From assembly GCF_013122565.1 (NCBI RefSeq), contig NZ_CP053258.1: a DNA stretch of 64,000 bases; one strand, written 5' to 3'. Each line of letters opens with the position of its first letter. Within the stretch, counting starts at the first letter, position 1. The notes beneath the pieces are model-generated. The model was given only the letters and a program-made list of their open reading frames with translations, was not told the DNA's origin and searched no databases. Origin of the DNA: Escherichia coli. Its GTDB lineage: Bacteria > Pseudomonadota > Gammaproteobacteria > Enterobacterales > Enterobacteriaceae. Made by a program: the position numbers and the translations under genes. Positions 1,630 to 15,573 of the stretch are shown here, piece by piece.

Positions 1630-1930
1630 ATATGCCGCCCCAAAGGGCGGCATTCGGGCTTACTTGCTGCTCTGACGGTTGTTAACCACCAGTAAATTGT
1701 CGCCGGAGAGACTCCGGTTATTATTTACCTCGGTTAACAGCGCACCAGAAACAATAAGTACGATACAGAAGCACCGTATCTTCATTGTGCGGTCCATGCG
1801 AAGACCGCATCACGACAGCACCACTGGCGATATTGCCGCGATAGCAAGCGCTGTGAAACACCTGCATTTACGGCCACGGAACATCCTTTCCTAAAGCCAG
1901 CGCCCGTTTGCGAGACGGCGGAAAGGGCCG
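1630..1930 (-). ncRNA. ryfA: ryfA-like transcript copy 2
   Basis: Same architecture as copy 1; TATTAT on - strand at about 1937-1942, hairpin terminator at about 1627-1660. Confidence 0.45.
1660..1797 (-). CDS. Small hydrophobic protein, 45 aa, copy 2 (C-terminus ...VVNNRQSSK)
   Basis: Same frame and start as copy 1; differences confined to the last residues. Confidence 0.45.
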   Translation of the reverse strand: MDRTMKIRCFCIVLIVSGALLTEVNNNRSLSGDNLLVVNNRQSSK

Positions 1931-1973
1931 GTGTCGATAATACGCTAAATAAACAATAATTACTCTCTTTTGC

Positions 1974-2002
1974 TTGACAAAAAGAGAGTTGCTGGCGAAT
2001 AT
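1974..2002 (+). promoter_or_regulatory. Candidate promoter for + strand sRNA, copy 2 (TTGACA-17-GAATAT)
   Basis: Same spacing as copy 1. Confidence 0.4.
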
Positions 2003-2008
2003 TGCTCT

Positions 2009-2110
2009 GCTGTGAAGCACCTGCGTTGCTCATGCAACACAAGTCAATCTGCTGGAGAGGCCGCGAACCAAACCGGCAACAAATAACCGCCTGATCTTGG
2101 CGGTTTTTTG
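2009..2110 (+). ncRNA. Candidate antisense-type sRNA, copy 2
   Basis: 5' region gctgtgaagcacctgcgtt matches 1849-1868 with two A-to-G differences that would give G-U pairs; hairpin plus T-run terminator at about 2085-2110. Confidence 0.4.
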
Positions 2111-2230
2111 TTGCTTAAAGAAAGTGAATTTACATGTTTAAGTAATATCTTTTACCGGTTAGTATTTTTAATATTGAGCGGGATTTGTTTATATTTGTCT
2201 GAATTCGGACTAATAAGCCAGGTCATTTTA

Positions 2231-2310
2231 ATATCGAACATATTGCGCCATTCTATGAACGTCGCTGGGGTGGTTTTTTGCGTGACTTTAAACAGAATCG
2301 GATAATCTAA
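2231..2310 (+). pseudogene. Second duplicated 3'-terminal fragment of sseB
   Basis: Identical in sequence class to 873-950 and 1551-1628. Confidence 0.6.
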
Positions 2311-2311
2311 A

Positions 2312-2612
2312 ATATGCCGCCCCAAAGGGCGGCATTCGGGCTTACCTGCTGTTCTGAAGGTTGTTAACCACCAATAAATTGTTGCCGGAGAGACTCCGGT
2401 TATTATTTACCTCAGTTAACAGCGCACCAGAAACAATAAGTACGATACAGAAGCACCGTATCTTCATTGTGCGGTCCATGCGAAGACCGCATCACGACAG
2501 CACCACTGGCGATATTGCCGCGATAGCAAGCACTGTGGGGTGCCTGTATTTACGGTCATGGAACATCCTTTCCTAAAGCCAGTGCCCGTTTGCGAGACGG
2601 CGAAAAGGGCCG
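2312..2612 (-). ncRNA. ryfA: ryfA-like transcript copy 3
   Basis: TATTAT on - strand at about 2619-2624; hairpin terminator at about 2309-2340. Confidence 0.45.
2342..2479 (-). CDS. Small hydrophobic protein, 45 aa, copy 3 (D33N plus two synonymous changes relative to copy 1)
   Basis: ACC to ACT and CTG to TTG silent substitutions preserve the reading frame. Confidence 0.45.
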   Translation of the reverse strand: MDRTMKIRCFCIVLIVSGALLTEVNNNRSLSGNNLLVVNNLQNSR

Positions 2613-2658
2613 TTAAGAATAATACTCTCATGTTTGAATAATTACTCTGTTTATTATC

Positions 2659-2687
2659 TTGACATGGCCAGGCATAAAAGAGAGTAT
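2659..2687 (+). promoter_or_regulatory. Candidate promoter for + strand sRNA, copy 3 (TTGACA-17-GAGTAT)
   Basis: Hexamers and 17-nt spacing kept although spacer and upstream palindrome have diverged. Confidence 0.4.
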
Positions 2688-2692
2688 TTCAA

Positions 2693-2795
2693 CACTGTGG
2701 GGTGCCTGCGTTGCTCCGGCAACACAAGCCAACCTGCTGGAAAGGCCGCGAACCAGACCAGCAATAAAAAACCGCCAAATTCGGCGGTTTTTTAT
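2693..2795 (+). ncRNA. Candidate antisense-type sRNA, copy 3
   Basis: 5' cactgtggggtgcctg identical to 2531-2546 in the ryfA-3 leader; ends at terminator 2768-2797. Confidence 0.4.
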
Positions 2796-2800
2796 TGCCT
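2766..2800. terminator. Bidirectional intrinsic terminator between sRNA copy 3 (+) and sseA (-)
   Basis: caataaaaaaccgccaaattcggcggttttttattg: GC stem flanked by A-run and T-run. Confidence 0.6.
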
Positions 2801-2809
2801 GTAAAAAGC

Positions 2810-3655
2810 TTATTTCACTGGCTCAACCGGTAAATCTGCCCGCGCGCCCCATTCACTCCATGCGCCGTCGTACAGTTTCACGTTTGGCACATCCAGCGTC
2901 GCGAGTGCCAACAAAACCACGGCTGCTGTTACACCAGAGCCGCAGCTGACGATAATCGGTTTGTCATAGCTGACGCCGCGACCAAAAAATATCGCATCCA
3001 GTTCATCGGTCGTTTTTAGTTCGCCTTCGCGCACCAGTTCCGTCCACGGAACGTTCAATGCACCGGGAATATGTCCGCGACGTAAACCTGGGCGAGGTTC
3101 ATCAACTTCTGCGTTAAAACGTGCAGCCGGGCGGGCATCAACAATTTGCGCCGTATTTTCATGGCTTGCCAATAATACATCGGTTACTTTCACCACGGCT
3201 TCAGGATTAAACGCGGCGTTAAACTCTCCTTCCGGCAGCTCTACTGCACCTTCTTCTAACAACAGATCATCGCGCTGCCAGCCTGCAAGTCCACCCCCCA
3301 GAATCGACACTTTCTCTACACCAAAGGTGCGCAGCATCCACCATGCTCGTGGGGCTGAGAAAAGATTACCTTCGTCATAGACAATCAGGTGCTTATCCTG
3401 GTTAACGCCTAATTCACGCATTGCCACGGCGAACGTTTCCGGGCGCGGCAGCATGTGCGGAAGCGGGGAAGTGTGATCAGAAAGCGCTTCGATATCAAAA
3501 AACACTGCGCCGGGAATATGTCCATTCAGATACTCCTGAGCAACGTTACGATCTTCCTGTCCAGGCGACGCCATGCGGGCATCGATAATCTGAATTTCCG
3601 GGTCATCAATATGTTCGGCGAGCCAGTCGGCTCCTACAAACCATGTCGTGGACAT
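2810..3655 (-). CDS. sseA: 3-mercaptopyruvate sulfurtransferase (rhodanese family)
   Basis: 281 aa from ATG at 3655 (MSTTWFVGADWLAEH...); track ORF extends further upstream; active-site CGSGVTA. Confidence 0.93.
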   Translation of the reverse strand: MSTTWFVGADWLAEHIDDPEIQIIDARMASPGQEDRNVAQEYLNGHIPGAVFFDIEALSDHTSPLPHMLPRPETFAVAMRELGVNQDKHLIVYDEGNLFSAPRAWWMLRTFGVEKVSILGGGLAGWQRDDLLLEEGAVELPEGEFNAAFNPEAVVKVTDVLLASHENTAQIVDARPAARFNAEVDEPRPGLRRGHIPGALNVPWTELVREGELKTTDELDAIFFGRGVSYDKPIIVSCGSGVTAAVVLLALATLDVPNVKLYDGAWSEWGARADLPVEPVK

Positions 3656-3861
3656 AGGCATCTCCATTTTTGCCGGGGTTAGGCTAAATTGTCGGATGTT
3701 TAGTGAAAAGCGACAAGCAAAAGAGGCTGATTTGGCTGTCTGAGCCACAATTCTCACTAAAATTCGGATTGTATGGGCGTGATACTGAATTACATAACGT
3801 AAATTCTCACGCATAATAATTATTCGACGTTGCTAACGGGCCATTGTGGCAGGGATGAAAA

Positions 3862-6800
3862 ATGAAAAAGTTACGCTTAGCCGCCTGCATGCTAATGCTG
3901 GCGCTGGCAGGGTGCGACAACAACGATAACGCGCCAACAGCGGTGAAAAAAGATGCGCCTTCTGAAGTTACTAAAGCGGCCTCTTCAGAAAACGCGAGTT
4001 CAGCAAAACTCTCCGCGCCAGAGCGACAAAAACTGGCACAACAGAGTGCCGGTAAGGCGCTGACATTGCTGGATCTCGCTGAAGTCCAACTTGATGGTGC
4101 AGCCACGCTGGTGCTGACGTTCTCCATCCCTCTCGACCCGGATCAGGATTTCTCACGCGTTATTCATGTCGTCGATAAAAAAAGCGGCAAAGTGGATGGT
4201 GCCTGGGAGCTGTCAGATAATCTTAAAGAGCTGCGTTTACGCCACCTCGAACCGAAACGTGATTTGATCGTTACTATTGGCAAGGAGGTCAAAGCACTCA
4301 ACAACGCAACCTTCAGTAAAGATTACGAAAAAACTATAACTACCCGCGACATCCAACCCAGCGTCGGTTTTGCCAGCCGTGGTTCGCTGCTGCCTGGTAA
4401 AGTCGTTGAAGGGCTGCCGGTAATGGCGCTCAACGTTAATAATGTCGATGTTAACTTCTTCCGCGTTAAGCCAGAATCTCTGCCAGCATTCATTAGCCAA
4501 TGGGAATACCGCAATTCGCTGGCGAACTGGCAGTCAGACAAACTGCTGCAGATGGCGGATCTGGTCTACACCGGACGGTTTGATCTCAATCCTGCGCGTA
4601 ACACCCGTGAAAAATTATTGCTGCCGCTGGGCGATATCAAACCGCTTCAGCAGGCGGGCGTGTATCTGGCTGTGATGAATCAGGCTGGACGTTACGATTA
4701 CAGTAATCCCGCGACGCTGTTTACGTTAAGTGATATCGGCGTTTCAGCTCACCGTTATCACAATCGTCTGGATATCTTTACCCAAAGTCTGGAAAACGGC
4801 GCGGCCCAGCAAGGAATTGAAGTCTCTTTATTAAATGAGAAAGGGCAGACTCTGACTCAGGCAACAAGTGACGCTCAGGGGCATGTGCAGCTGGAAAATG
4901 ATAAAAATGCGGCATTACTGCTGGCACGTAAAGACGGTCAGACAACGCTACTCGATTTAAAACTTCCGGCGCTGGACTTAGCAGAATTTAACATTGCTGG
5001 CGCGCCAGGCTATAGCAAACAGTTTTTCATGTTTGGCCCGCGCGATCTTTATCGCCCAGGTGAAACGGTCATCCTCAATGGTTTGCTGCGTGATGCAGAC
5101 GGTAAAGCGTTGCCCGATCAACCCATCAAGTTAGACGTGATTAAACCCGACGGGCAGGTACTCAGGAGCGTCGTTAGTCAGCCGGAGAATGGCCTCTACC
5201 ACTTAACCTGGCCACTCGATAGCAATGCGGCAACCGGTATGTGGCATATTCGCGCTAACACGGGCGATAACCAGTATCGGATGTGGGATTTCCACGTCGA
5301 AGATTTTATGCCAGAGCGCATGGCGCTGAATCTGACCGGTGAGAAAACCCCGCTTATGCCGAAAGATGAAGTGAAATTCTCCGTGGTGGGGTACTACCTG
5401 TACGGTGCACCTGCTAATGGTAATACTTTGCAAGGGCAACTTTTCCTGCGCCCACTGCGTGACGCTGTGTCAGCCTTACCTGGTTTTGAATTCGGCGATA
5501 TAGCTGCCGAAAACCTTTCCCGCACGCTGGATGAAGTTCAGTTGACGCTGGATGATAAAGGGCGCGGCGAAGTTTCTACAGAAAGCCAGTGGAAGGAAAC
5601 GCATTCCCCATTACAGGTTATTTTCCAGGGTAGTTTGCTGGAATCGGGCGGTCGCCCGGTGACGCGCCGCGCTGAGCAGGCTATCTGGCCTGCCGATGCA
5701 TTGCCGGGGATCCGTCCGCAGTTCGCCTCGAAATCGGTTTACGATTATCGCACTGACAGCACGGTGAAACAGCTCATTGTTGATGAAGGCAGTAACGCCG
5801 CTTTTGACATCGTTTATAGCGATGCGCAAGGCGTGAAAAAAGCTGTGTCGGGCTTGCAAGTGCGCCTGATTCGCGAACGCCGTGATTACTACTGGAACTG
5901 GTCAGAAGATGAAGGCTGGCAGTCACAGTTTGATCAAAAAGATCTGATCGAAAATGAACAAACTCTGGATCTTCAGGCGGATGAAACCGGTAAGGTCAGT
6001 TTCCCGGTAGAGTGGGGCGCTTATCGTCTGGAAGTCAAAGCGCCGAATGAAGCGGTCAGTAGCGTGCGTTTCTGGGCTGGCTATAGCTGGCAGGACAACA
6101 GCGACGGGAGCGGTACCGTGCGACCCGACCGTGTCACGCTGAAACTGGATAAAGCCAGTTATCGCCCTGGCGATACCATCAAGTTGCATATTGCCGCGCC
6201 AACGGCGGGTAAAGGTTATGCGATGGTCGAGTCCAGTGAAGGGCCGCTGTGGTGGCAAGAGATTGATGTTCCGGCTCAAGGGCTAGATCTGACGATTCCG
6301 GTCGATAAAACCTGGCATCGTCATGATCTGTATTTAAGTACACTGGTGGTACGTCCTGGCGATAAATCTCGCTCCGCGACGCCAAAACGCGCGGTTGGGG
6401 TGTTGCATCTTCCGCTTGGTGATGAAAACCGTCGCCTCGATCTGGCGCTGGAAACACCAGCAAAAATGCGTCCCAATCAGCCATTAACCGTGAAAATTAA
6501 AGCCAGCAATAAAAATGGTGAGATGCCAAAACAGGTGAATGTGCTGGTGTCTGCCGTTGATAGCGGTGTGCTGAATATTACTGACTACGTTACCCCCGAT
6601 CCGTGGCAGGCGTTCTTTGGTCAGAAACGCTATGGTGCAGACATTTACGATATTTACGGTCAGGTCATTGAAGGTCAGGGGCGTCTGGCAGCTCTGCGTT
6701 TTGGTGGCGATGGTGATGAGCTGAAACGTGGTGGTAAACCGCCGGTCAATCACGTCAATATTGTCGCGCAGCAGGCGCTGCCGGTAACGCTCAATGAACA

Positions 6801-8823
6801 GGGCGAAGGCTCGGTTACACTGCCAATTGGCGATTTTAACGGTGAATTACGCGTCATGGCGCAAGCCTGGACGGCAGATGACTTCGGTAGCAACGAAAGC
6901 AAAGTGATAGTTGCCGCACCGGTGATTGCTGAACTGAACATGCCGCGCTTTATGGCGAGTGGCGATACCTCGCGTCTGACGCTGGATATCACTAATCTTA
7001 CCGATAAACCGCAAAAACTGAACGTTGCCCTGACCGCCAGTGGTTTGCTTGAACTGGTCAGCGATTCACCCGCAGCCGTTGAATTAGCGCCAGGTGTGCG
7101 TACTACGCTGTTTATCCCGGTGCGAGCATTGCCGGGTTATGGCGATGGAGAAATTCAGGCCACCATTAGCGGGTTAGCGTTACCGGGTGAAACCGTTGCC
7201 GATCAGCATAAGCAGTGGAAAATCGGCGTCCGTCCGGCGTTCCCGGCACAAACGGTTAATGACGGTACGGCGTTGCAGCCTGGTGAGTCATGGGCGATTC
7301 CGGCGGATGGATTGCAAAACTTCTCGCCTGTTACGCTGGAAGGGCAATTGTTGTTGAGCGGCAAACCACCGCTGAACATCGCACGTTATATCAAAGAGTT
7401 AAAAGCGTATCCGTACGGCTGTCTCGAGCAAACCGCCAGCGGCCTGTTCCCGTCACTTTATACCAACGCAGCCCAACTGCAGGCGTTGGGCATCAAAGGC
7501 GACAGTGATGAGAAACGCCGTGCATCGGTCGATATCGGCATTTCCCGTTTGCTGCAAATGCAACGTGATAACGGCGGCTTTGCGCTGTGGGATAAAAACG
7601 GTGACGAAGAGTACTGGCTGACGGCTTACGTGATGGATTTCCTGGTCCGCGCAGGCGAACAGGGTTACAGCGTGCCGACAGACGCCATTAACCGGGGTAA
7701 TGAGCGTCTGCTGCGCTATTTACAAGATCCGGGCATGATGTCGATCCCGTACGCGGATAATCTCAAAGCCAGTAAATTCGCCGTACAGTCTTACGCTGCG
7801 CTGGTGTTGGCCCGTCAGCAAAAGGCTCCACTGGGTGCGCTGCGTGAAATCTGGGAGCATCGTGCAGATGCCGCTTCTGGTTTACCGCTGCTGCAACTTG
7901 GCGTTGCGCTGAAAACCATGGGTGATGCAACGCGTGGTGAAGAAGCGATTGTGCTGGCGCTGAAAACGCAGAGAAATAGTGATGAGCGGATATGGCTGGG
8001 TGATTACGGTAGTCCACTGCGCGACAACGCGTTAATGCTCTCCTTGCTGGAAGAAAATAAACTGCTACCCGATGAGCAGTACACTTTGCTGAACACACTT
8101 TCGCAGCAGGCGTTTGGTGAACGCTGGCTATCGACGCAGGAAAGTAACGCGTTGTTCCTGGCTGCCCGTACGATTCAGGATTTACCGGGTAAATGGCAGG
8201 CGCAAACCTCTTTCTCATCTGAGCCGCTGATAGGCGAGAAAGCGCAAAACAGCACTCTGAATAGCGATCAACTTGCCACCTTGCAGGTGACCAACAGTGG
8301 CGATCAGCCGTTATGGCTGCGTGTGGATGCCAGCGGTTATCCGCAATCCGCACCTTTACCGGCGAACAATGTGCTGCAAATCGAGCGTCATATTCTTGGT
8401 ACTGATGGTAAGAGCAAATCGCTGGACTCGTTACGTAGCGGCGATCTGGTGCTGGTCTGGTTGCAGGTAAAAGCCAGTAACAGCGTGCCAGATGCGTTAG
8501 TCGTGGATTTGCTGCCTGCGGGTCTGGAACTGGAAAACCAGAATCTGGCGAACGGTAGCGCCAGCCTGGAGCAAAGTGGTGGCGAAGTGCAAAACTTACT
8601 GAACCAGATGCAGCAGGCGAGTATTAAGCACATTGAGTTCCGTGACGATCGCTTTGTGGCGGCGGTTGCCGTTGATGAATACCAACCGGTAACGCTGGTG
8701 TATCTGGCGCGGGCGGTGACGCCGGGAACGTATCAGGTACCGCAACCGATGGTGGAATCAATGTATGTTCCCCAATGGCGGGCGACTGGCGCGGCTGAAG
8801 ATCTGCTGATTGTCAGACCGTAA
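3862..8823 (+). CDS. yfhM: Alpha-2-macroglobulin-family lipoprotein
   Basis: 1653 aa; lipoprotein signal LALAGC; thioester motif CLEQ (YGCLEQTAS); adjacent to pbpC. Confidence 0.95.
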   Translation: MKKLRLAACMLMLALAGCDNNDNAPTAVKKDAPSEVTKAASSENASSAKLSAPERQKLAQQSAGKALTLLDLAEVQLDGAATLVLTFSIPLDPDQDFSRVIHVVDKKSGKVDGAWELSDNLKELRLRHLEPKRDLIVTIGKEVKALNNATFSKDYEKTITTRDIQPSVGFASRGSLLPGKVVEGLPVMALNVNNVDVNFFRVKPESLPAFISQWEYRNSLANWQSDKLLQMADLVYTGRFDLNPARNTREKLLLPLGDIKPLQQAGVYLAVMNQAGRYDYSNPATLFTLSDIGVSAHRYHNRLDIFTQSLENGAAQQGIEVSLLNEKGQTLTQATSDAQGHVQLENDKNAALLLARKDGQTTLLDLKLPALDLAEFNIAGAPGYSKQFFMFGPRDLYRPGETVILNGLLRDADGKALPDQPIKLDVIKPDGQVLRSVVSQPENGLYHLTWPLDSNAATGMWHIRANTGDNQYRMWDFHVEDFMPERMALNLTGEKTPLMPKDEVKFSVVGYYLYGAPANGNTLQGQLFLRPLRDAVSALPGFEFGDIAAENLSRTLDEVQLTLDDKGRGEVSTESQWKETHSPLQVIFQGSLLESGGRPVTRRAEQAIWPADALPGIRPQFASKSVYDYRTDSTVKQLIVDEGSNAAFDIVYSDAQGVKKAVSGLQVRLIRERRDYYWNWSEDEGWQSQFDQKDLIENEQTLDLQADETGKVSFPVEWGAYRLEVKAPNEAVSSVRFWAGYSWQDNSDGSGTVRPDRVTLKLDKASYRPGDTIKLHIAAPTAGKGYAMVESSEGPLWWQEIDVPAQGLDLTIPVDKTWHRHDLYLSTLVVRPGDKSRSATPKRAVGVLHLPLGDENRRLDLALETPAKMRPNQPLTVKIKASNKNGEMPKQVNVLVSAVDSGVLNITDYVTPDPWQAFFGQKRYGADIYDIYGQVIEGQGRLAALRFGGDGDELKRGGKPPVNHVNIVAQQALPVTLNEQGEGSVTLPIGDFNGELRVMAQAWTADDFGSNESKVIVAAPVIAELNMPRFMASGDTSRLTLDITNLTDKPQKLNVALTASGLLELVSDSPAAVELAPGVRTTLFIPVRALPGYGDGEIQATISGLALPGETVADQHKQWKIGVRPAFPAQTVNDGTALQPGESWAIPADGLQNFSPVTLEGQLLLSGKPPLNIARYIKELKAYPYGCLEQTASGLFPSLYTNAAQLQALGIKGDSDEKRRASVDIGISRLLQMQRDNGGFALWDKNGDEEYWLTAYVMDFLVRAGEQGYSVPTDAINRGNERLLRYLQDPGMMSIPYADNLKASKFAVQSYAALVLARQQKAPLGALREIWEHRADAASGLPLLQLGVALKTMGDATRGEEAIVLALKTQRNSDERIWLGDYGSPLRDNALMLSLLEENKLLPDEQYTLLNTLSQQAFGERWLSTQESNALFLAARTIQDLPGKWQAQTSFSSEPLIGEKAQNSTLNSDQLATLQVTNSGDQPLWLRVDASGYPQSAPLPANNVLQIERHILGTDGKSKSLDSLRSGDLVLVWLQVKASNSVPDALVVDLLPAGLELENQNLANGSASLEQSGGEVQNLLNQMQQASIKHIEFRDDRFVAAVAVDEYQPVTLVYLARAVTPGTYQVPQPMVESMYVPQWRATGAAEDLLIVRP

Positions 8824-11136
8824 ATGCCTCGCCTGTTAACCAAACGCGGCTGCTGGATAACGCTGGCAGCTGCGCCCTTTCTCCTTTTTCTTGCAGCGTG
8901 GGGAGCAGATAAACTCTGGCCTCTACCGCTGCATGAAGTCAATCCCGCACGAGTGGTCGTGGCGCAGGATGGTACGCCGCTCTGGCGCTTCGCCGATGCT
9001 GACGGCATCTGGCGTTATCCGGTAACAATCGAAGATGTTTCTCCACGTTACCTTGAAGCGCTGATCAATTATGAAGATCGCTGGTTCTGGAAGCATCCGG
9101 GGGTGAATCCATTCTCGGTGGCGCGCGCAGCATGGCAAGATCTCACTTCGGGACGGGTTATTTCCGGTGGCAGCACGCTCACTATGCAGGTTGCTCGTCT
9201 GCTTGATCCTCACCCCAAAACATTTGGCGGCAAAATTCGCCAGCTCTGGCGCGCGTTGCAACTGGAGTGGCATTTGTCTAAGCGTGAAATTCTGACCTTG
9301 TATCTTAACCGCGCTCCGTTTGGCGGTACGTTGCAGGGGATCGGTGCGGCAAGTTGGGCTTATCTCGGAAAATCGTCTGCGAATTTAAGCTATTCCGAGG
9401 CGGCAATGCTGGCGGTGTTGCCGCAAGCGCCCAGCCGACTGCGCCCGGATCGCTGGCCGGAACGTGCCGAAGCCGCGCGTAATAAAGTGCTCGAACGGAT
9501 GGCTGCGCAAGGTGTGTGGTCCCGTGAGCAGGTAAAAGAGTCAAGGGAAGAACCCATCTGGCTGGCACCCCGACAAATGCCGCAACTGGCACCGCTGTTT
9601 TCGCGCATGATGCTCGGTAAAAGCAAAAGCGACAAAATTGTTACTACGCTGGATGCCGGTCTTCAACGACGTCTGGAAGAACTGGCGCAAAACTGGAAAG
9701 GACGATTACCACCGAGCAGCTCACTGGCGATGATCGTGGTTGATCATACCGATATGCGTGTTCGCGGCTGGGTGGGATCGGTTGATCTCAACGATGATTC
9801 ACGCTTTGGTCATGTCGATATGGTCAATGCGATCCGATCGCCAGGATCGGTGCTCAAACCGTTTGTTTATGGTCTGGCGCTGGATGAAGGCTTGATCCAC
9901 CCGGCATCACTGCTGCAAGACGTCCCCCGGCGCACCGGTGATTATCGACCAGGTAATTTTGATGGCGGTTTTCATGGCCCGATCAGCATGAGCGAGGCGC
10001 TGGTGCGCTCGCTGAATTTACCTGCTGTGCAGGTGCTGGAAGCCTATGGCCCGAAACGGTTTGCGGCAAAGTTACGCAATGTTGGATTGCCGTTATATTT
10101 GCCCAACGGTGCTGCGCCGAATCTTTCACTCATACTCGGCGGCGCTGGTGCAAAACTGGAAGATATGGCGGCAGCGTATACCGCGTTTGCTCGCCACGGC
10201 AAGGCAGGCAAATTGCGCTTACAGCCTGACGATCCGCTGCTTGAACGGCCTTTAATGTCGTCGGGGGCGGCGTGGATCATTCGCCGGATTATGGCTGATG
10301 AAGCGCAACCCTTGCCGGATAGTGCCTTGCCGCGCGTCGCCCCACTGGCATGGAAAACGGGCACCAGCTATGGCTATCGTGATGCCTGGGCGATTGGGGT
10401 TAACGCTCGCTATGTCATTGGGATCTGGACTGGCAGACCGGATGGCACGCCCGTTGTTGGTCAGTTTGGCTTTGCCAGCGCCGTACCGCTGTTGAATCAG
10501 GTTAATAATATCTTATTGTCGCGCAGTGCTAATCTGCCGGAAGACCCGCGCCCGAACTCAGTCACTCGTGGCGTTATCTGCTGGCCGGGCGGACAGTCTT
10601 TGCCGGAAGGTGACGGTAACTGTCGCCGCCGCCTGGCAACCTGGTTGCTGGACGGGAGCCAGCCGCCAACTCTATTACTGCCGGAGCAGGAAGGCATTAA
10701 TGGCATTCGTTTTCCCATCTGGCTGGATGAAAACGGCAAACGTGTTGCCGCTGATTGCCCTCAGGCGCGACAAGAAATGATAAATGTCTGGCCGCTACCG
10801 CTGGAACCCTGGTTGCCCGCATCAGAACGCCGCGCTGTGCGCTTACCACCGGCCTCGACAATTTGCCCGCCATACGGTCACGATGCACAACTCCCGCTGC
10901 AGCTGACAGGCGTTCGCGATGGCGCGATTATTAAACGTTTACCGGGCGCAGCAGAAGCGACTTTGCCGGTGCAATCAAGTGGAGGAGCAGGTGAACGCTG
11001 GTGGTTTCTGAATGGCGAACCGTTAACTGAACGCGGGCGCAACGTGACCCTGCATTTGATGGATAAAGGCGATTATCAATTGCTGGTGATGGATGAGGTG
11101 GGGCAAATCGCGACAGTGAAATTTGTCATGCAATAG
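8824..11136 (+). CDS. pbpC: Penicillin-binding protein 1C
   Basis: 770 aa; ATG immediately follows yfhM stop (TAAATG). Confidence 0.95.
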   Translation: MPRLLTKRGCWITLAAAPFLLFLAAWGADKLWPLPLHEVNPARVVVAQDGTPLWRFADADGIWRYPVTIEDVSPRYLEALINYEDRWFWKHPGVNPFSVARAAWQDLTSGRVISGGSTLTMQVARLLDPHPKTFGGKIRQLWRALQLEWHLSKREILTLYLNRAPFGGTLQGIGAASWAYLGKSSANLSYSEAAMLAVLPQAPSRLRPDRWPERAEAARNKVLERMAAQGVWSREQVKESREEPIWLAPRQMPQLAPLFSRMMLGKSKSDKIVTTLDAGLQRRLEELAQNWKGRLPPSSSLAMIVVDHTDMRVRGWVGSVDLNDDSRFGHVDMVNAIRSPGSVLKPFVYGLALDEGLIHPASLLQDVPRRTGDYRPGNFDGGFHGPISMSEALVRSLNLPAVQVLEAYGPKRFAAKLRNVGLPLYLPNGAAPNLSLILGGAGAKLEDMAAAYTAFARHGKAGKLRLQPDDPLLERPLMSSGAAWIIRRIMADEAQPLPDSALPRVAPLAWKTGTSYGYRDAWAIGVNARYVIGIWTGRPDGTPVVGQFGFASAVPLLNQVNNILLSRSANLPEDPRPNSVTRGVICWPGGQSLPEGDGNCRRRLATWLLDGSQPPTLLLPEQEGINGIRFPIWLDENGKRVAADCPQARQEMINVWPLPLEPWLPASERRAVRLPPASTICPPYGHDAQLPLQLTGVRDGAIIKRLPGAAEATLPVQSSGGAGERWWFLNGEPLTERGRNVTLHLMDKGDYQLLVMDEVGQIATVKFVMQ

Positions 11137-11284
11137 TCTGTTTTGTCCCTGATTGTTGCTTAAACTGGGTTTATTTTAAAAAAATGTTACCTTCAGCAAT
11201 AGTCAACGGCCCTGTTGCTCATTATAATCCGCGCCATCTCGTACGCTGGTACAGACAACAACAGAACAATTTACAGAGGTAAAC

Positions 11285-11716
11285 ATGGCTATTGAACGTA
11301 CTTTTTCCATCATCAAACCGAACGCGGTAGCAAAAAACGTCATTGGTAATATCTTTGCGCGCTTTGAAGCTGCAGGGTTCAAAATTGTCGGCACCAAAAT
11401 GCTGCACCTGACCGTTGAACAGGCTCGTGGCTTTTATGCTGAACACGATGGAAAACCGTTCTTTGATGGTCTGGTTGAATTCATGACCTCTGGCCCGATC
11501 GTGGTTTCCGTGCTGGAAGGTGAAAACGCCGTTCAGCGTCACCGCGATCTGCTGGGCGCGACCAATCCGGCAAACGCACTGGCCGGTACTCTGCGCGCTG
11601 ATTACGCTGACAGCCTGACCGAAAATGGTACCCACGGTTCTGATTCCGTCGAATCTGCCGCTCGCGAAATCGCTTATTTTTTCGGCGAAGGCGAAGTGTG
11701 CCCGCGCACCCGTTAA
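11285..11716 (+). CDS. ndk: Nucleoside diphosphate kinase
   Basis: 143 aa, [15 protein letters not shown]...; matches recalled E. coli Ndk. Confidence 0.97.
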
Positions 11717-11775
11717 TAATTTCGTAAATGCCGCGTGCAAACGTGGCATCCGTGCGCCAGAATTTGTACAATGAA

Positions 11776-11819
11776 GCGCCCCCGGACGAGCAGCCGCTCA
11801 CCGGGGCGTTTCTTTTTTC
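11776..11819 (+). terminator. Intrinsic terminator downstream of ndk
   Basis: gcgcccccgg...ccggggcg hairpin followed by TTTCTTTTTT. Confidence 0.6.
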
Positions 11820-11865
11820 AACCCTCCAGGGGCCATAACGTGTAATAACGAGGCCGGAATAGCAT

Positions 11866-13020
11866 ATGTCTGAACAATTAGTCACACCTGAAAACGTCAC
11901 CACGAAAGATGGAAAAATCAACCTGCTGGATCTCAACCGTCAGCAGATGCGGGAGTTTTTTAAAGATTTAGGTGAAAAACCCTTCCGCGCCGATCAGGTG
12001 ATGAAGTGGATGTATCACTATTGCTGCGACAACTTTGATGAGATGACCGACATCAACAAAGTGTTGCGCGGCAAACTGAAAGAGGTGGCGGAGATCCGCG
12101 CACCGGAAGTGGTTGAAGAACAGCGTTCATCTGACGGCACCATTAAATGGGCGATCGCCGTTGGCGATCAGCGCGTCGAAACGGTGTATATCCCGGAAGA
12201 CGACCGTGCCACGCTCTGCGTCTCTTCGCAGGTGGGGTGTGCGCTGGAGTGTAAATTCTGTTCCACCGCCCAGCAGGGCTTTAACCGCAACCTGCGGGTA
12301 TCGGAAATTATCGGTCAGGTGTGGCGTGCGGCGAAAATCGTCGGCGCAGCAAAAGTCACCGGTCAGCGCCCAATCACTAACGTAGTGATGATGGGCATGG
12401 GCGAGCCGCTGCTCAACCTGAACAACGTCGTTCCGGCGATGGAAATCATGCTTGATGATTTCGGTTTTGGCCTGTCTAAACGTCGCGTCACGCTTTCTAC
12501 TTCCGGTGTAGTTCCGGCGCTGGATAAACTGGGCGATATGATCGACGTTGCACTGGCAATTTCCCTGCACGCGCCGAACGACGAAATTCGTGACGAAATT
12601 GTGCCGATCAACAAAAAGTACAATATCGAAACGTTCCTTGCTGCGGTGCGCCGTTATCTGGAGAAATCCAACGCCAATCAGGGCCGAGTCACTATTGAAT
12701 ACGTGATGCTTGACCACGTTAACGACGGCACTGAACACGCGCACCAACTGGCGGAACTGCTGAAAGATACGCCGTGTAAGATCAACCTGATCCCGTGGAA
12801 CCCGTTCCCGGGTGCGCCGTATGGACGCAGCTCGAACAGCCGTATCGACCGTTTCTCAAAAGTGCTGATGAGCTACGGTTTCACCACTATTGTGCGTAAA
12901 ACTCGTGGTGATGATATCGATGCTGCCTGTGGTCAGTTGGCGGGCGATGTTATCGACCGTACAAAACGTACCCTGCGTAAACGGATGCAGGGTGAAGCCA
13001 TCGACATTAAAGCGGTCTGA
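11866..13020 (+). CDS. rlmN: 23S rRNA/tRNA m2A methyltransferase, radical SAM
   Basis: 384 aa; CALECKFC (CxxxCxxC) motif. Confidence 0.95.
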
Positions 13021-14344: not shown

Positions 14345-15463
14345 ATGCATAACCAGGCTCCAATTCAACGTAGAAAATCAACACGTATTTACGTTGGGAA
14401 TGTGCCGATTGGCGATGGTGCTCCCATCGCCGTACAGTCCATGACCAATACGCGTACGACAGACGTCGAAGCAACGGTCAATCAAATCAAGGCGCTGGAA
14501 CGCGTTGGCGCTGATATCGTCCGTGTATCCGTACCGACGATGGACGCGGCAGAAGCGTTCAAACTCATCAAACAGCAGGTTAACGTGCCGCTGGTGGCTG
14601 ACATCCACTTCGACTATCGCATTGCGCTGAAAGTAGCGGAATACGGCGTCGATTGTCTGCGTATTAACCCTGGCAATATCGGTAATGAAGAGCGTATTCG
14701 CATGGTGGTTGACTGTGCGCGCGATAAAAACATTCCAATCCGTATTGGCGTTAACGCCGGATCGCTGGAAAAAGATCTGCAAGAAAAGTATGGCGAACCG
14801 ACGCCGCAGGCGTTGCTGGAATCCGCCATGCGTCATGTTGATCATCTCGATCGCCTGAACTTCGATCAGTTCAAAGTTAGCGTGAAAGCGTCTGACGTCT
14901 TCCTCGCTGTTGAGTCTTATCGTTTGCTGGCAAAACAGATCGATCAGCCACTGCATCTGGGGATCACCGAAGCCGGTGGTGCGCGCAGTGGGGCAGTAAA
15001 ATCCGCCATTGGTTTAGGTCTGCTGCTGTCTGAAGGCATCGGCGACACGCTGCGCGTATCGCTGGCGGCCGATCCGGTCGAAGAGATCAAAGTCGGTTTC
15101 GATATTTTGAAATCGCTGCGTATCCGTTCGCGCGGGATCAACTTCATCGCCTGCCCAACCTGTTCGCGTCAGGAGTTTGATGTTATCGGTACGGTTAACG
15201 CGTTGGAGCAACGCCTGGAAGATATCATCACTCCGATGGACGTTTCGATAATCGGCTGCGTGGTGAATGGCCCAGGTGAGGCGCTGGTTTCTACACTCGG
15301 CGTCACCGGCGGCAACAAGAAAAGCGGCCTCTATGAAGATGGCGTGCGCAAAGACCGTCTGGACAACAACGATATGATCGACCAGCTGGAAGCACGCATT
15401 CGTGCGAAAGCCAGTCAGCTGGACGAAGCGCGTCGAATTGACGTTCAGCAGGTTGAAAAATAA
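14345..15463 (+). CDS. ispG: HMBPP synthase (MEP pathway)
   Basis: 372 aa. Confidence 0.95.
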
Positions 15464-15573
15464 TAACGTGATGGGAAGCGCCTCGCTTCCCGTGTATGAT
15501 TGAACCCGCATGGCTCCCGAAACATTGAGGGAAGCGTTGAGGGTTCATTTTTATATTCAGAAAGAGAATAAAC

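Follow-up and report, generated by a model that had tools for sequence, protein, structure and literature searches.

A predicted RNA hairpin past the yfhM stop codon at the abutting yfhM–pbpC junction of Escherichia coli

The yfhM–pbpC locus

We examined the junction between yfhM, which encodes a bacterial alpha-2-macroglobulin (A2M) lipoprotein, and pbpC, which encodes the peptidoglycan glycosyltransferase penicillin-binding protein 1c (PBP1c), in a stretch of Escherichia coli DNA of 64,000 nucleotides (nt) (assembly GCF_013122565.1, contig NZ_CP053258.1; the whole stretch is called the window below). Both genes lie on the plus strand. yfhM (also ECAM) occupies 3862..8823, with an ATG start, 1653 codons and a TAA stop, and pbpC occupies 8824..11136, with an ATG start, 770 codons and a stop; the two open reading frames share a common reading frame and are joined by ccgTAAATGcct. 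This is the standard E. coli yfhM–pbpC two-gene unit. A query with the 7.8-kb stretch around it (window 3600-11400) was matched in 5425 of the 5426 complete E. coli genomes searched, always on the chromosome and with a best identity of 98.3%. The neighbours were constant across the E. coli genomes matched, with sseA divergent upstream and ndk and rlmN downstream. In E. coli NCTC9100 (L085, NZ_LR134239.1 1238490-1238778), yfhM is kept and pbpC and ndk are deleted, from about pbpC codon 7 to the ndk–rlmN spacer, leaving a natural A2M gene without its partner.

RefSeq annotates an identical abutment in E. coli GF3-3 (L001; yfhM 1763..6724, pbpC 6725..9037) and in K-12 MG1655 (pbpC 2645013..2647325, yfhM 2647326..2652287), and likewise in three more E. 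coli strains. The yfhM–pbpC pair is treated as established in PMC4498604, PMC3328433 and PMC3735191, citing Budd et al. 2004. The two genes and their order, the thioester motif and the coordinates of the abutment are not new: reference annotation and the structural literature contain them, and descriptions of the pair go back to 2004. Compared with K-12 (b2520-b2519), the window has the same genes and neighbours, the same protein lengths (1653 and 770 residues), the same TAAATG junction, lipobox and CLEQ motif, and the same penicillin-binding protein motifs. The difference is a nucleotide divergence of about 2%: yfhM, equal in length, is 98.07% identical (96 nucleotide and 28 amino-acid differences), and pbpC, also equal in length, is 97.62% identical (55 nucleotide and 10 amino-acid differences).

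End to end, YfhM aligned with the structures deposited as 'lipoprotein YfhM' (PDB 4RTD, 4ZIQ and 5A42), scoring about 3600 bits, and with PDB 4U48, from Salmonella, at about 3040 bits. Eleven Pfam domains exceeded their cutoffs and followed the canonical order, namely bMG1, A2M_bMG2, bMG3, MG2, bMG5, bMG6, A2M_BRD, A2M, TED, CUB and bMG10. The protein begins with a lipoprotein signal peptide, MKKLRLAACMLMLALAGC, in which a motif search on the translation placed the lipobox LAGC at residues 15-18 (3904..3915, plus strand), with Cys18 as the lipidated residue. YfhM has only three cysteines, at residue 9, at the lipidated position 18 and at position 1187. The last of these opens the thioester motif CLEQ (Cys1187-Gln1190; 7420..7431, plus strand), which stands in YPYGCLEQTASG, inside the region matched by TED (residues 1176-1281). 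YfhM is a protease trap of the periplasm, and this motif would supply its thioester. By its MG-domain architecture, CxEQ motif, lipobox cysteine and adjacency to pbpC, YfhM is a class 1 bacterial alpha-2-macroglobulin. With the alpha-2-macroglobulin of Salmonella enterica (PDB 4U48/4U4J) and other class 1 A2Ms it has in common that it is a lipoprotein, that it carries a CxEQ thioester motif and that its gene directly precedes pbpC, in the same orientation. The class 2 macroglobulins, such as Pseudomonas aeruginosa MagD and E. coli YfaS, which are encoded in six-gene operons, belong to the same MG-domain fold family but lack the lipobox cysteine, usually lack CxEQ and are not encoded beside pbpC (PMC3735191). 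YfhM of the window shows all three of these class 1 features.

The second gene encodes PBP1c, a class A penicillin-binding protein. PbpC scored 1560 bits against the NCBIfam PbpC equivalog NF008414 (cutoff 1121) and 915.8 bits against TIGR02073 PBP_1c (cutoff 494.2), and its Pfam domains are Transgly, Transpeptidase and, at the C terminus, BiPBP_C. The glycosyltransferase motif EDRWFWKHPG spans residues 84-93 (9073..9102, plus strand), with E84, D85 and G93 invariant or nearly so in an alignment of 40 PbpC representative sequences (alignment A1), and the GT51 motif GGSTLTMQ, likewise at positions that vary little or not at all in this alignment, stands at residue 115. Nearly invariant in the same alignment were the transpeptidase-type SxxK motif SVLK (residues 342-345; 9847..9858, plus strand), the SxN motif SLN at residue 396 and KTG at residues 511-513 (10354-10362, plus strand). 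A sequence search of the PDB found no solved PBP1c; the best matches were to PBP1a, over the glycosyltransferase domain only, at 191 bits. What its authors call the first PBP1c phenotype has been reported in PMC6131605. One PbpC relative from a metagenome contig (P0035, 903 residues) ends in about 200 unrelated, low-complexity residues, probably owing to a frameshift or misassembly near codon 700.

The stop–start junction and its distribution

At the boundary between the genes, gtcagaccgTAAATGcctcgc, the yfhM stop TAA (8821-8823) is followed by the pbpC start ATG (8824-8826) with a gap of 0, forming TAAATG (8821..8826, plus strand) in a common frame. The hexamer at this place is identical in K-12, in E. 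albertii and in two species of Citrobacter. We rejected the view of TAAATG as a statistically unusual hexamer, because the window holds 29 copies and shuffled sequence 37 ± 6. Without enrichment of the hexamer as such, its significance rests solely on its position between two long identified genes. Readthrough of the TAA between the in-frame genes would yield a fusion of 2424 residues, and we found no evidence of such a product: P0035 is extended C-terminally, not N-terminally.

No Shine–Dalgarno (SD) sequence precedes the pbpC start. The duplex between the 22 nt upstream of the ATG and the 3′ end of 16S ribosomal RNA (the anti-SD duplex) had a ΔG of +0.4 kcal/mol, compared with −6.0 for yfhM, −7.1 for ndk, −5.9 for rlmN and −6.4 kcal/mol for sseA. 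Random 22-mers averaged −2.7 kcal/mol, and the pbpC site was weaker than 88% of random positions. In the window, the ATG at 8824 is the sole in-frame ATG, GTG or TTG that follows the yfhM stop ahead of the codons for the membrane anchor. A cluster of about 10,800 PbpC sequences of E. coli has a representative of 758 residues (P0001) whose start is a TTG located 12-13 codons downstream, and automated gene callers evidently avoid the ATG that lacks an SD sequence. In K-12-like strains this alternative start lies in the region of codon 14, which is TTG in K-12 and CTG in the window (8860-8862 region), so that the start used by some gene callers is gone here. A mis-called pbpC start was therefore rejected as an explanation of the abutment, given the CTG in the window and the conservation of the ATG in Escherichia and Citrobacter.

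We compared the junction across 80 pbpC loci, namely the window and 79 loci from one-genome-per-species collections, searched by tblastn with the window's two proteins and covering Enterobacterales, Pseudomonas, Xanthomonadales and beta-, alpha- and delta-proteobacteria. An A2M gene lay upstream of pbpC on the same strand in 72 of the 80 loci, and this order was found across gamma-, beta-, alpha- and delta-proteobacteria. In 59 loci the genes were adjacent, with the A2M stop no more than 300 nt from the first aligned PbpC residue. In 13 the A2M gene was upstream but more distant (400-800 nt in Pseudomonas, and at kilobase scale in some), and 8 gave no A2M match, several of these being simply short of upstream DNA.

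The geometry of the junction in class 1 A2M–pbpC loci elsewhere varies, from tight junctions through spacers with hairpins to distances of 400-5000 nt (Pseudomonas, some Xanthomonas). In 23 of the 59 adjacent pairs, the distance from the A2M stop to an in-frame pbpC start was between −4 and +3 nt. TAAATG, with a gap of 0, was seen in the window, E. albertii and the two Citrobacter species; TAAnATG, TAAnGTG or TGAttaATG, with gaps of +1 to +3 nt, in Enterobacter-like species, Superficieibacter and Mangrovibacter; and a 4-nt overlap, ATGA (10 loci) or GTGA (1 locus), in Bradyrhizobium, Afipia and other alpha- and beta-proteobacteria. Because 10 of these 11 overlaps use ATG, they are real starts rather than chance occurrences. 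Yersinia, Photorhabdus and many others have spacers of 50-250 nt. As judged from these sequences, the A2M–pbpC gene order is strongly conserved, whereas the coupling-type junction has arisen in several lineages and does not define the pair. The exact TAAATG junction is confined to the Escherichia–Citrobacter clade within the 80 loci sampled.

An earlier note on this DNA had described yfhM and pbpC as a conserved pair of alpha-2-macroglobulin and PBP1c genes that abut without a spacer, with the thioester motif of YfhM intact. Domain, equivalog and structure matches agree with both gene identities, the CLEQ motif is intact, the RefSeq strains have the same spacer-free junction, and the pair is conserved. 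On the comparison of loci above, the earlier note overstated the case where it presented the tight, coupling-type junction as a property of the conserved pair.

Predicted RNA structure at the junction

A segment of 120 nt spanning the junction folded at −53.6 kcal/mol, against a mean of −37.3 kcal/mol for dinucleotide shuffles (z −4.9). Among 380 folding windows across 3700-11300, the three most extreme z scores (−5.1, −4.7 and −4.5) all fell on the junction, against a background of −0.25 ± 1.13; by these predictions no other part of the operon is as structured as the junction, with its z of about −5. Within the 120-nt fold, a predicted mRNA hairpin at 8776..8838 (plus strand; −31.6 kcal/mol), here hairpin A, would enclose both the stop and the start codon, its 5′ arm formed by yfhM codons about 1639-1642 and its 3′ arm by pbpC codons 1-5. 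E. coli strains and E. albertii keep hairpin A through changes of G–C to G–U pairs, and it was not recovered outside Escherichia by RNAalifold on 10 Enterobacteriaceae junctions.

A second predicted hairpin, hairpin B (8845..8874, plus strand; −20.1 kcal/mol), has a 12-bp stem and a 6-nt loop, is formed by pbpC codons 8-17 and lies 22-51 nt past the yfhM stop. Next comes CCCUUUCUCCUUUUUCUU; the pyrimidine- and U-rich tract CCCTTTCTCCTTTTTCTT (8875..8892, plus strand), read from the sequence, encodes PFLLFL of the membrane anchor. Of the features of an intrinsic terminator, hairpin B has the GC-rich stem-loop and lacks the U-tract, for CCCUUUCU 3′ of the stem holds 4 U in 8, and the strict rule that we used asks for at least 5 U in the 8 nt adjoining the stem. 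At the same position, E. albertii and three further loci, two Enterobacter-like (L006, L007) and one of Mangrovibacter (L008), satisfy the U-tract rule. This post-stop hairpin is a modest new detail beyond the known gene pair.

When the 10 Enterobacteriaceae junctions were aligned with MAFFT, with no fitting of structure, the consensus helix returned by RNAalifold was hairpin B. Standard pairs formed in 91.5% of the alignment cells of the stem, against 78.4 ± 2.6% in shuffled alignments; 19 cells were changed on both sides of a pair, against 6.3 ± 2.2; and the covariation score was 0.471, against 0.227. None of 500 shuffles reached the native value on any of the three measures, and registers slid along the alignment as controls were 26-61% paired. 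We take this covariation as moderate evidence, drawn from aligned sequences, that hairpin B is conserved across Enterobacteriaceae.

Structure past the A2M stop was also common in the wider set. Over the 57 species whose genes are adjacent, folding z averaged −1.21 at the A2M stop, −1.83 at 60 nt past it and about −0.2 elsewhere, and z fell below −3 in 25% of loci at +60 nt, compared with about 2% elsewhere. In the 28 loci where the two regions can be separated, the region after the A2M stop had a mean z of −2.09, with 32% of loci below −3 (Mann–Whitney p 6e-7 against 224 control windows), and the N-terminal, anchor-coding region of pbpC had a mean z of −0.07. The structure thus tracks the A2M stop and not the anchor-coding region, which argues against the hairpin as a mere by-product of membrane-anchor codons. 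Terminator-like motifs, each a stem with at least 5 U in 8 nt, ended 5-130 nt past the A2M stop in 11 of the 57 loci, compared with 4.9% of control coding windows (p 1.3e-4), the clearest cases being those of Photorhabdus, an uncultured Enterobacterales genome, Mangrovibacter, Enterobacter-like species and E. albertii. Across these sequences, a conserved, predicted stem-loop lies at a fixed distance past the A2M stop, intergenic where a spacer exists and within the pbpC frame where the genes abut. The Pseudomonas loci (L012-L017, L058) have 400-800 nt between the A2M stop and pbpC, and several of them are strongly structured right after the stop, with z down to −5.7.

Expression of the pair

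A candidate sigma-70-like promoter, ATTACA-17-CATAAT (3789..3817, plus strand), lies in the divergent sseA–yfhM spacer about 45 nt upstream of the yfhM ATG. It has 9 of 12 consensus matches, and because such sites are not more frequent in the region than in shuffles it counts as a candidate only. Two scans gave negatives that are weak evidence: a consensus scan of the plus strand from 3817 to 10903 found no sigma-70-like site at threshold, and a strict terminator scan found none between yfhM and pbpC. An Rfam covariance-model scan of 3400-12000 gave 0 matches at E ≤ 1. The operon question sets the absence of a consensus promoter or strict terminator between the genes against the conserved post-stop hairpin and an in vitro RpoE-binding peak inside yfhM (below).

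Abutting or overlapping stop and start codons that support termination–reinitiation coupling are exemplified by junctions of the E. coli trp operon. The yfhM–pbpC junction resembles these in its adjacent stop and start, in a downstream gene without an SD sequence and in a start codon buried in structure; it differs in that the dependence of the downstream gene on upstream translation is here a prediction from the sequence and fold. The earlier note had taken the junction to be consistent with translational coupling, and this part of its reading holds in so far as the genes lie on the same strand with a gap of 0, pbpC has no SD sequence and a sole in-frame start, the AUG falls within predicted hairpin A, and neither promoter nor strict terminator was found between the genes. 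The tight junction is, as set out above, not a feature of A2M–pbpC pairs in general. Coupling of pbpC translation to that of yfhM is, on these predicted features, plausible.

On balance we favour, as probable, a co-transcribed unit in which pbpC is translated mainly by restart after the yfhM UAA and in which hairpin B lowers the output of PBP1c. yfhM and pbpC would be co-transcribed from a promoter in the sseA–yfhM spacer, and ribosomes terminating at the yfhM UAA would restart at the adjoining AUG, which would be the main source of PbpC. In terminating, the ribosome would overlie the 3′ arm of hairpin A and melt it, freeing an AUG that would otherwise be buried; opening of hairpin A in this way fits coupling. 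Hairpin B may in turn lower pbpC expression relative to yfhM, holding PBP1c output well below that of YfhM, a stoichiometric, single-use inhibitor. It might do so by partial termination, by protection of the 3′ end of yfhM mRNA or by hindering early elongation. Since the conserved post-stop hairpin occupies the site of terminator-like hairpins in relatives, the RNA may partly uncouple the expression of yfhM and pbpC instead of simply linking it. In other operons, internal hairpins adjust the ratio of gene products through partial termination or through differences in mRNA decay (PMC5927463, PMC7815308). The case here is similar in that a conserved stem-loop marks the 3′ end of the upstream cistron and the products are likely needed in unequal amounts; the difference is that the stem-loop lies inside the downstream coding sequence and is a predicted fold. 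The yfhM–pbpC pair was not among the entries in the searched supplement text of those two papers, which is perhaps incomplete.

Several points weigh against this account. The literature searched gave no experimental support for co-transcription of the pair or for yfhM-dependent translation of pbpC. No yfhM or pbpC rows appeared in the supplement text, perhaps incomplete, of Adams 2021 Term-seq, Dar and Sorek 2018, SMRT-Cappable-seq 2018 and TetRP 2016, a gap that, in such text, is not evidence of absence; the operon is, besides, probably weakly expressed in the laboratory. In the window, CCC separates the stem of hairpin B from the U-tract, and the site fails both terminator scans. The covariation test drew on a small set of 10 sequences, which represent about five lineages, and took its helix from the very alignment on which it was run. 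Synonymous resampling shows that much of the junction structure is a consequence of the encoded peptides, and the RpoE peak may leave room for a promoter inside yfhM.

This last point belongs to the alternative that pbpC is expressed independently: either a promoter within yfhM would drive it, or ribosomes would initiate de novo at its AUG with no need of an SD sequence, and the abutment would reflect only genome compaction. Genomic systematic evolution of ligands by exponential enrichment (SELEX) recovered a fragment inside yfhM bound in vitro by RpoE holoenzyme, with a peak at K-12 position 2649866, or about window 6283 (PMC5493296). A spacer of 50-250 nt or other DNA separates the genes in many relatives, so the pair can function without a tight junction, and one E. 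coli strain (L085) retains yfhM after loss of pbpC. Yet the peak reports binding in vitro, without a stated orientation and 2.5 kb from pbpC; the plus-strand scan gave no sigma-70-like site that could serve pbpC, and no sigmaE-like AACTT-N14-19-TCNNA motif was found in yfhM, including the vicinity of the peak. Lower anti-SD complementarity than at 88% of random positions, together with an AUG in a predicted helix of −31.6 kcal/mol, would moreover disfavour free 30S binding, and we consider independent expression improbable. A 'penicillin-binding protein 1C' named in one paper on the sigmaE regulon was rejected as a mislabel of yfgM. Somewhat unlikely, though possible, is that hairpin B and its U-rich tail act as a leaky intrinsic terminator or as a stabiliser of the yfhM 3′ end within the first 25 pbpC codons, with most transcripts ending or being trimmed at this point and only a minority carrying pbpC. 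Canonical terminator shapes stand at the same place in Photorhabdus (L020, L055), in the uncultured Enterobacterales genome (L010), in Mangrovibacter (L008) and in Enterobacter-like species (L006, L007); terminator-like motifs are enriched past the A2M stop, and the structure tracks that stop; and the covariation of hairpin B between E. coli and E. albertii includes changes of both arms that alter amino acids. Against termination stand the three C between stem and U-run in the window and in K-12, the failure of the site in both terminator scans, the two Citrobacter species, whose stem has no U-tract, and the searched text, perhaps incomplete, of E. coli Term-seq supplements, which gave no 3′ end for yfhM or pbpC.

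The junction structure might instead be functionless, a by-product of the GC-rich Arg, Trp, Leu and Ala codons of the PbpC cytoplasmic tail and membrane anchor. Sequences resampled at synonymous sites with both proteins kept (300 resamples) already folded at −42.8 ± 4.5 kcal/mol, compared with −37.3 kcal/mol for dinucleotide shuffles, and self-complementarity of the CUGG/CCAG type is inherent to these codons. The native junction of the window lay 2.4 standard deviations below its resamples, a level that 4 of the 300 reached. Among relatives, the corresponding z was −1.65 in K-12 and −1.9 in E. albertii; four others ranged from −0.9 to −1.8, and one reached −2.6. The native excess thus amounted to only 1-2.5 standard deviations, and the two Citrobacter species, at about 0, showed none. 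In E. coli strain L083, a substitution disrupts one base pair of hairpin B. Such an origin does not account well for the separable loci, in which the anchor-coding region, when apart from the A2M stop, has no excess of structure (mean z −0.07, n = 28) and the post-stop region does, nor for stem sequences that differ among lineages with pairing kept, at 91.5% against 26-61% in slid registers; we regard it as unlikely. More speculative still, and to our minds quite unlikely, is a variant in which hairpin B is a regulatory element inherited from the terminator of the A2M gene, absorbed into pbpC as the genes fused end to start in Enterobacteriaceae, and now a translation-sensitive attenuator or mRNA-end stabiliser. 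It would be kept from forming by ribosomes that restart at the abutting AUG and closely trail RNA polymerase.

Other features of the window lie outside the pair. Three tandem ryfA/timP toxin–small RNA units stand on the minus strand, at 949-1253, 1627-1931 and 2309-2613 (array 949-2613), with two IS128 RNAs interleaved at 1385-1595 and 2067-2277. K-12 has a single ryfA/timP unit beside sseA, and some E. coli genomes are annotated with three or two copies of timP; the array is thus variable in copy number. The highest identity to the sseA–ryfA region among the complete E. coli genomes searched was 96.6%; together with the 98.3% ceiling over the 7.8-kb stretch, this makes the source apparently an Escherichia/Shigella lineage that those genomes do not include. 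Downstream, the small RNA sroE lies at 15463-15554 on the plus strand (Rfam RF00371, 116.6 bits), and no tRNA genes were found in the 64-kb window.

Hardly any phenotype is known for PBP1c, and a connection with the protease trap is so far hypothetical. Knowledge of how the two genes are co-expressed would guide experiments on their partnership. Relevant to it are restart at an AUG without an SD sequence, as we propose it, and a conserved hairpin through which the enzyme may be held at a far lower level than the stoichiometric inhibitor. If hairpin B were such an inherited, translation-sensitive element, the ratio of YfhM to PBP1c would be set by the tightness of transcription–translation coupling at the junction. 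The post-stop hairpin is also, more generally, a small example of an RNA element that seemingly persists in spacer and coding sequence alike.

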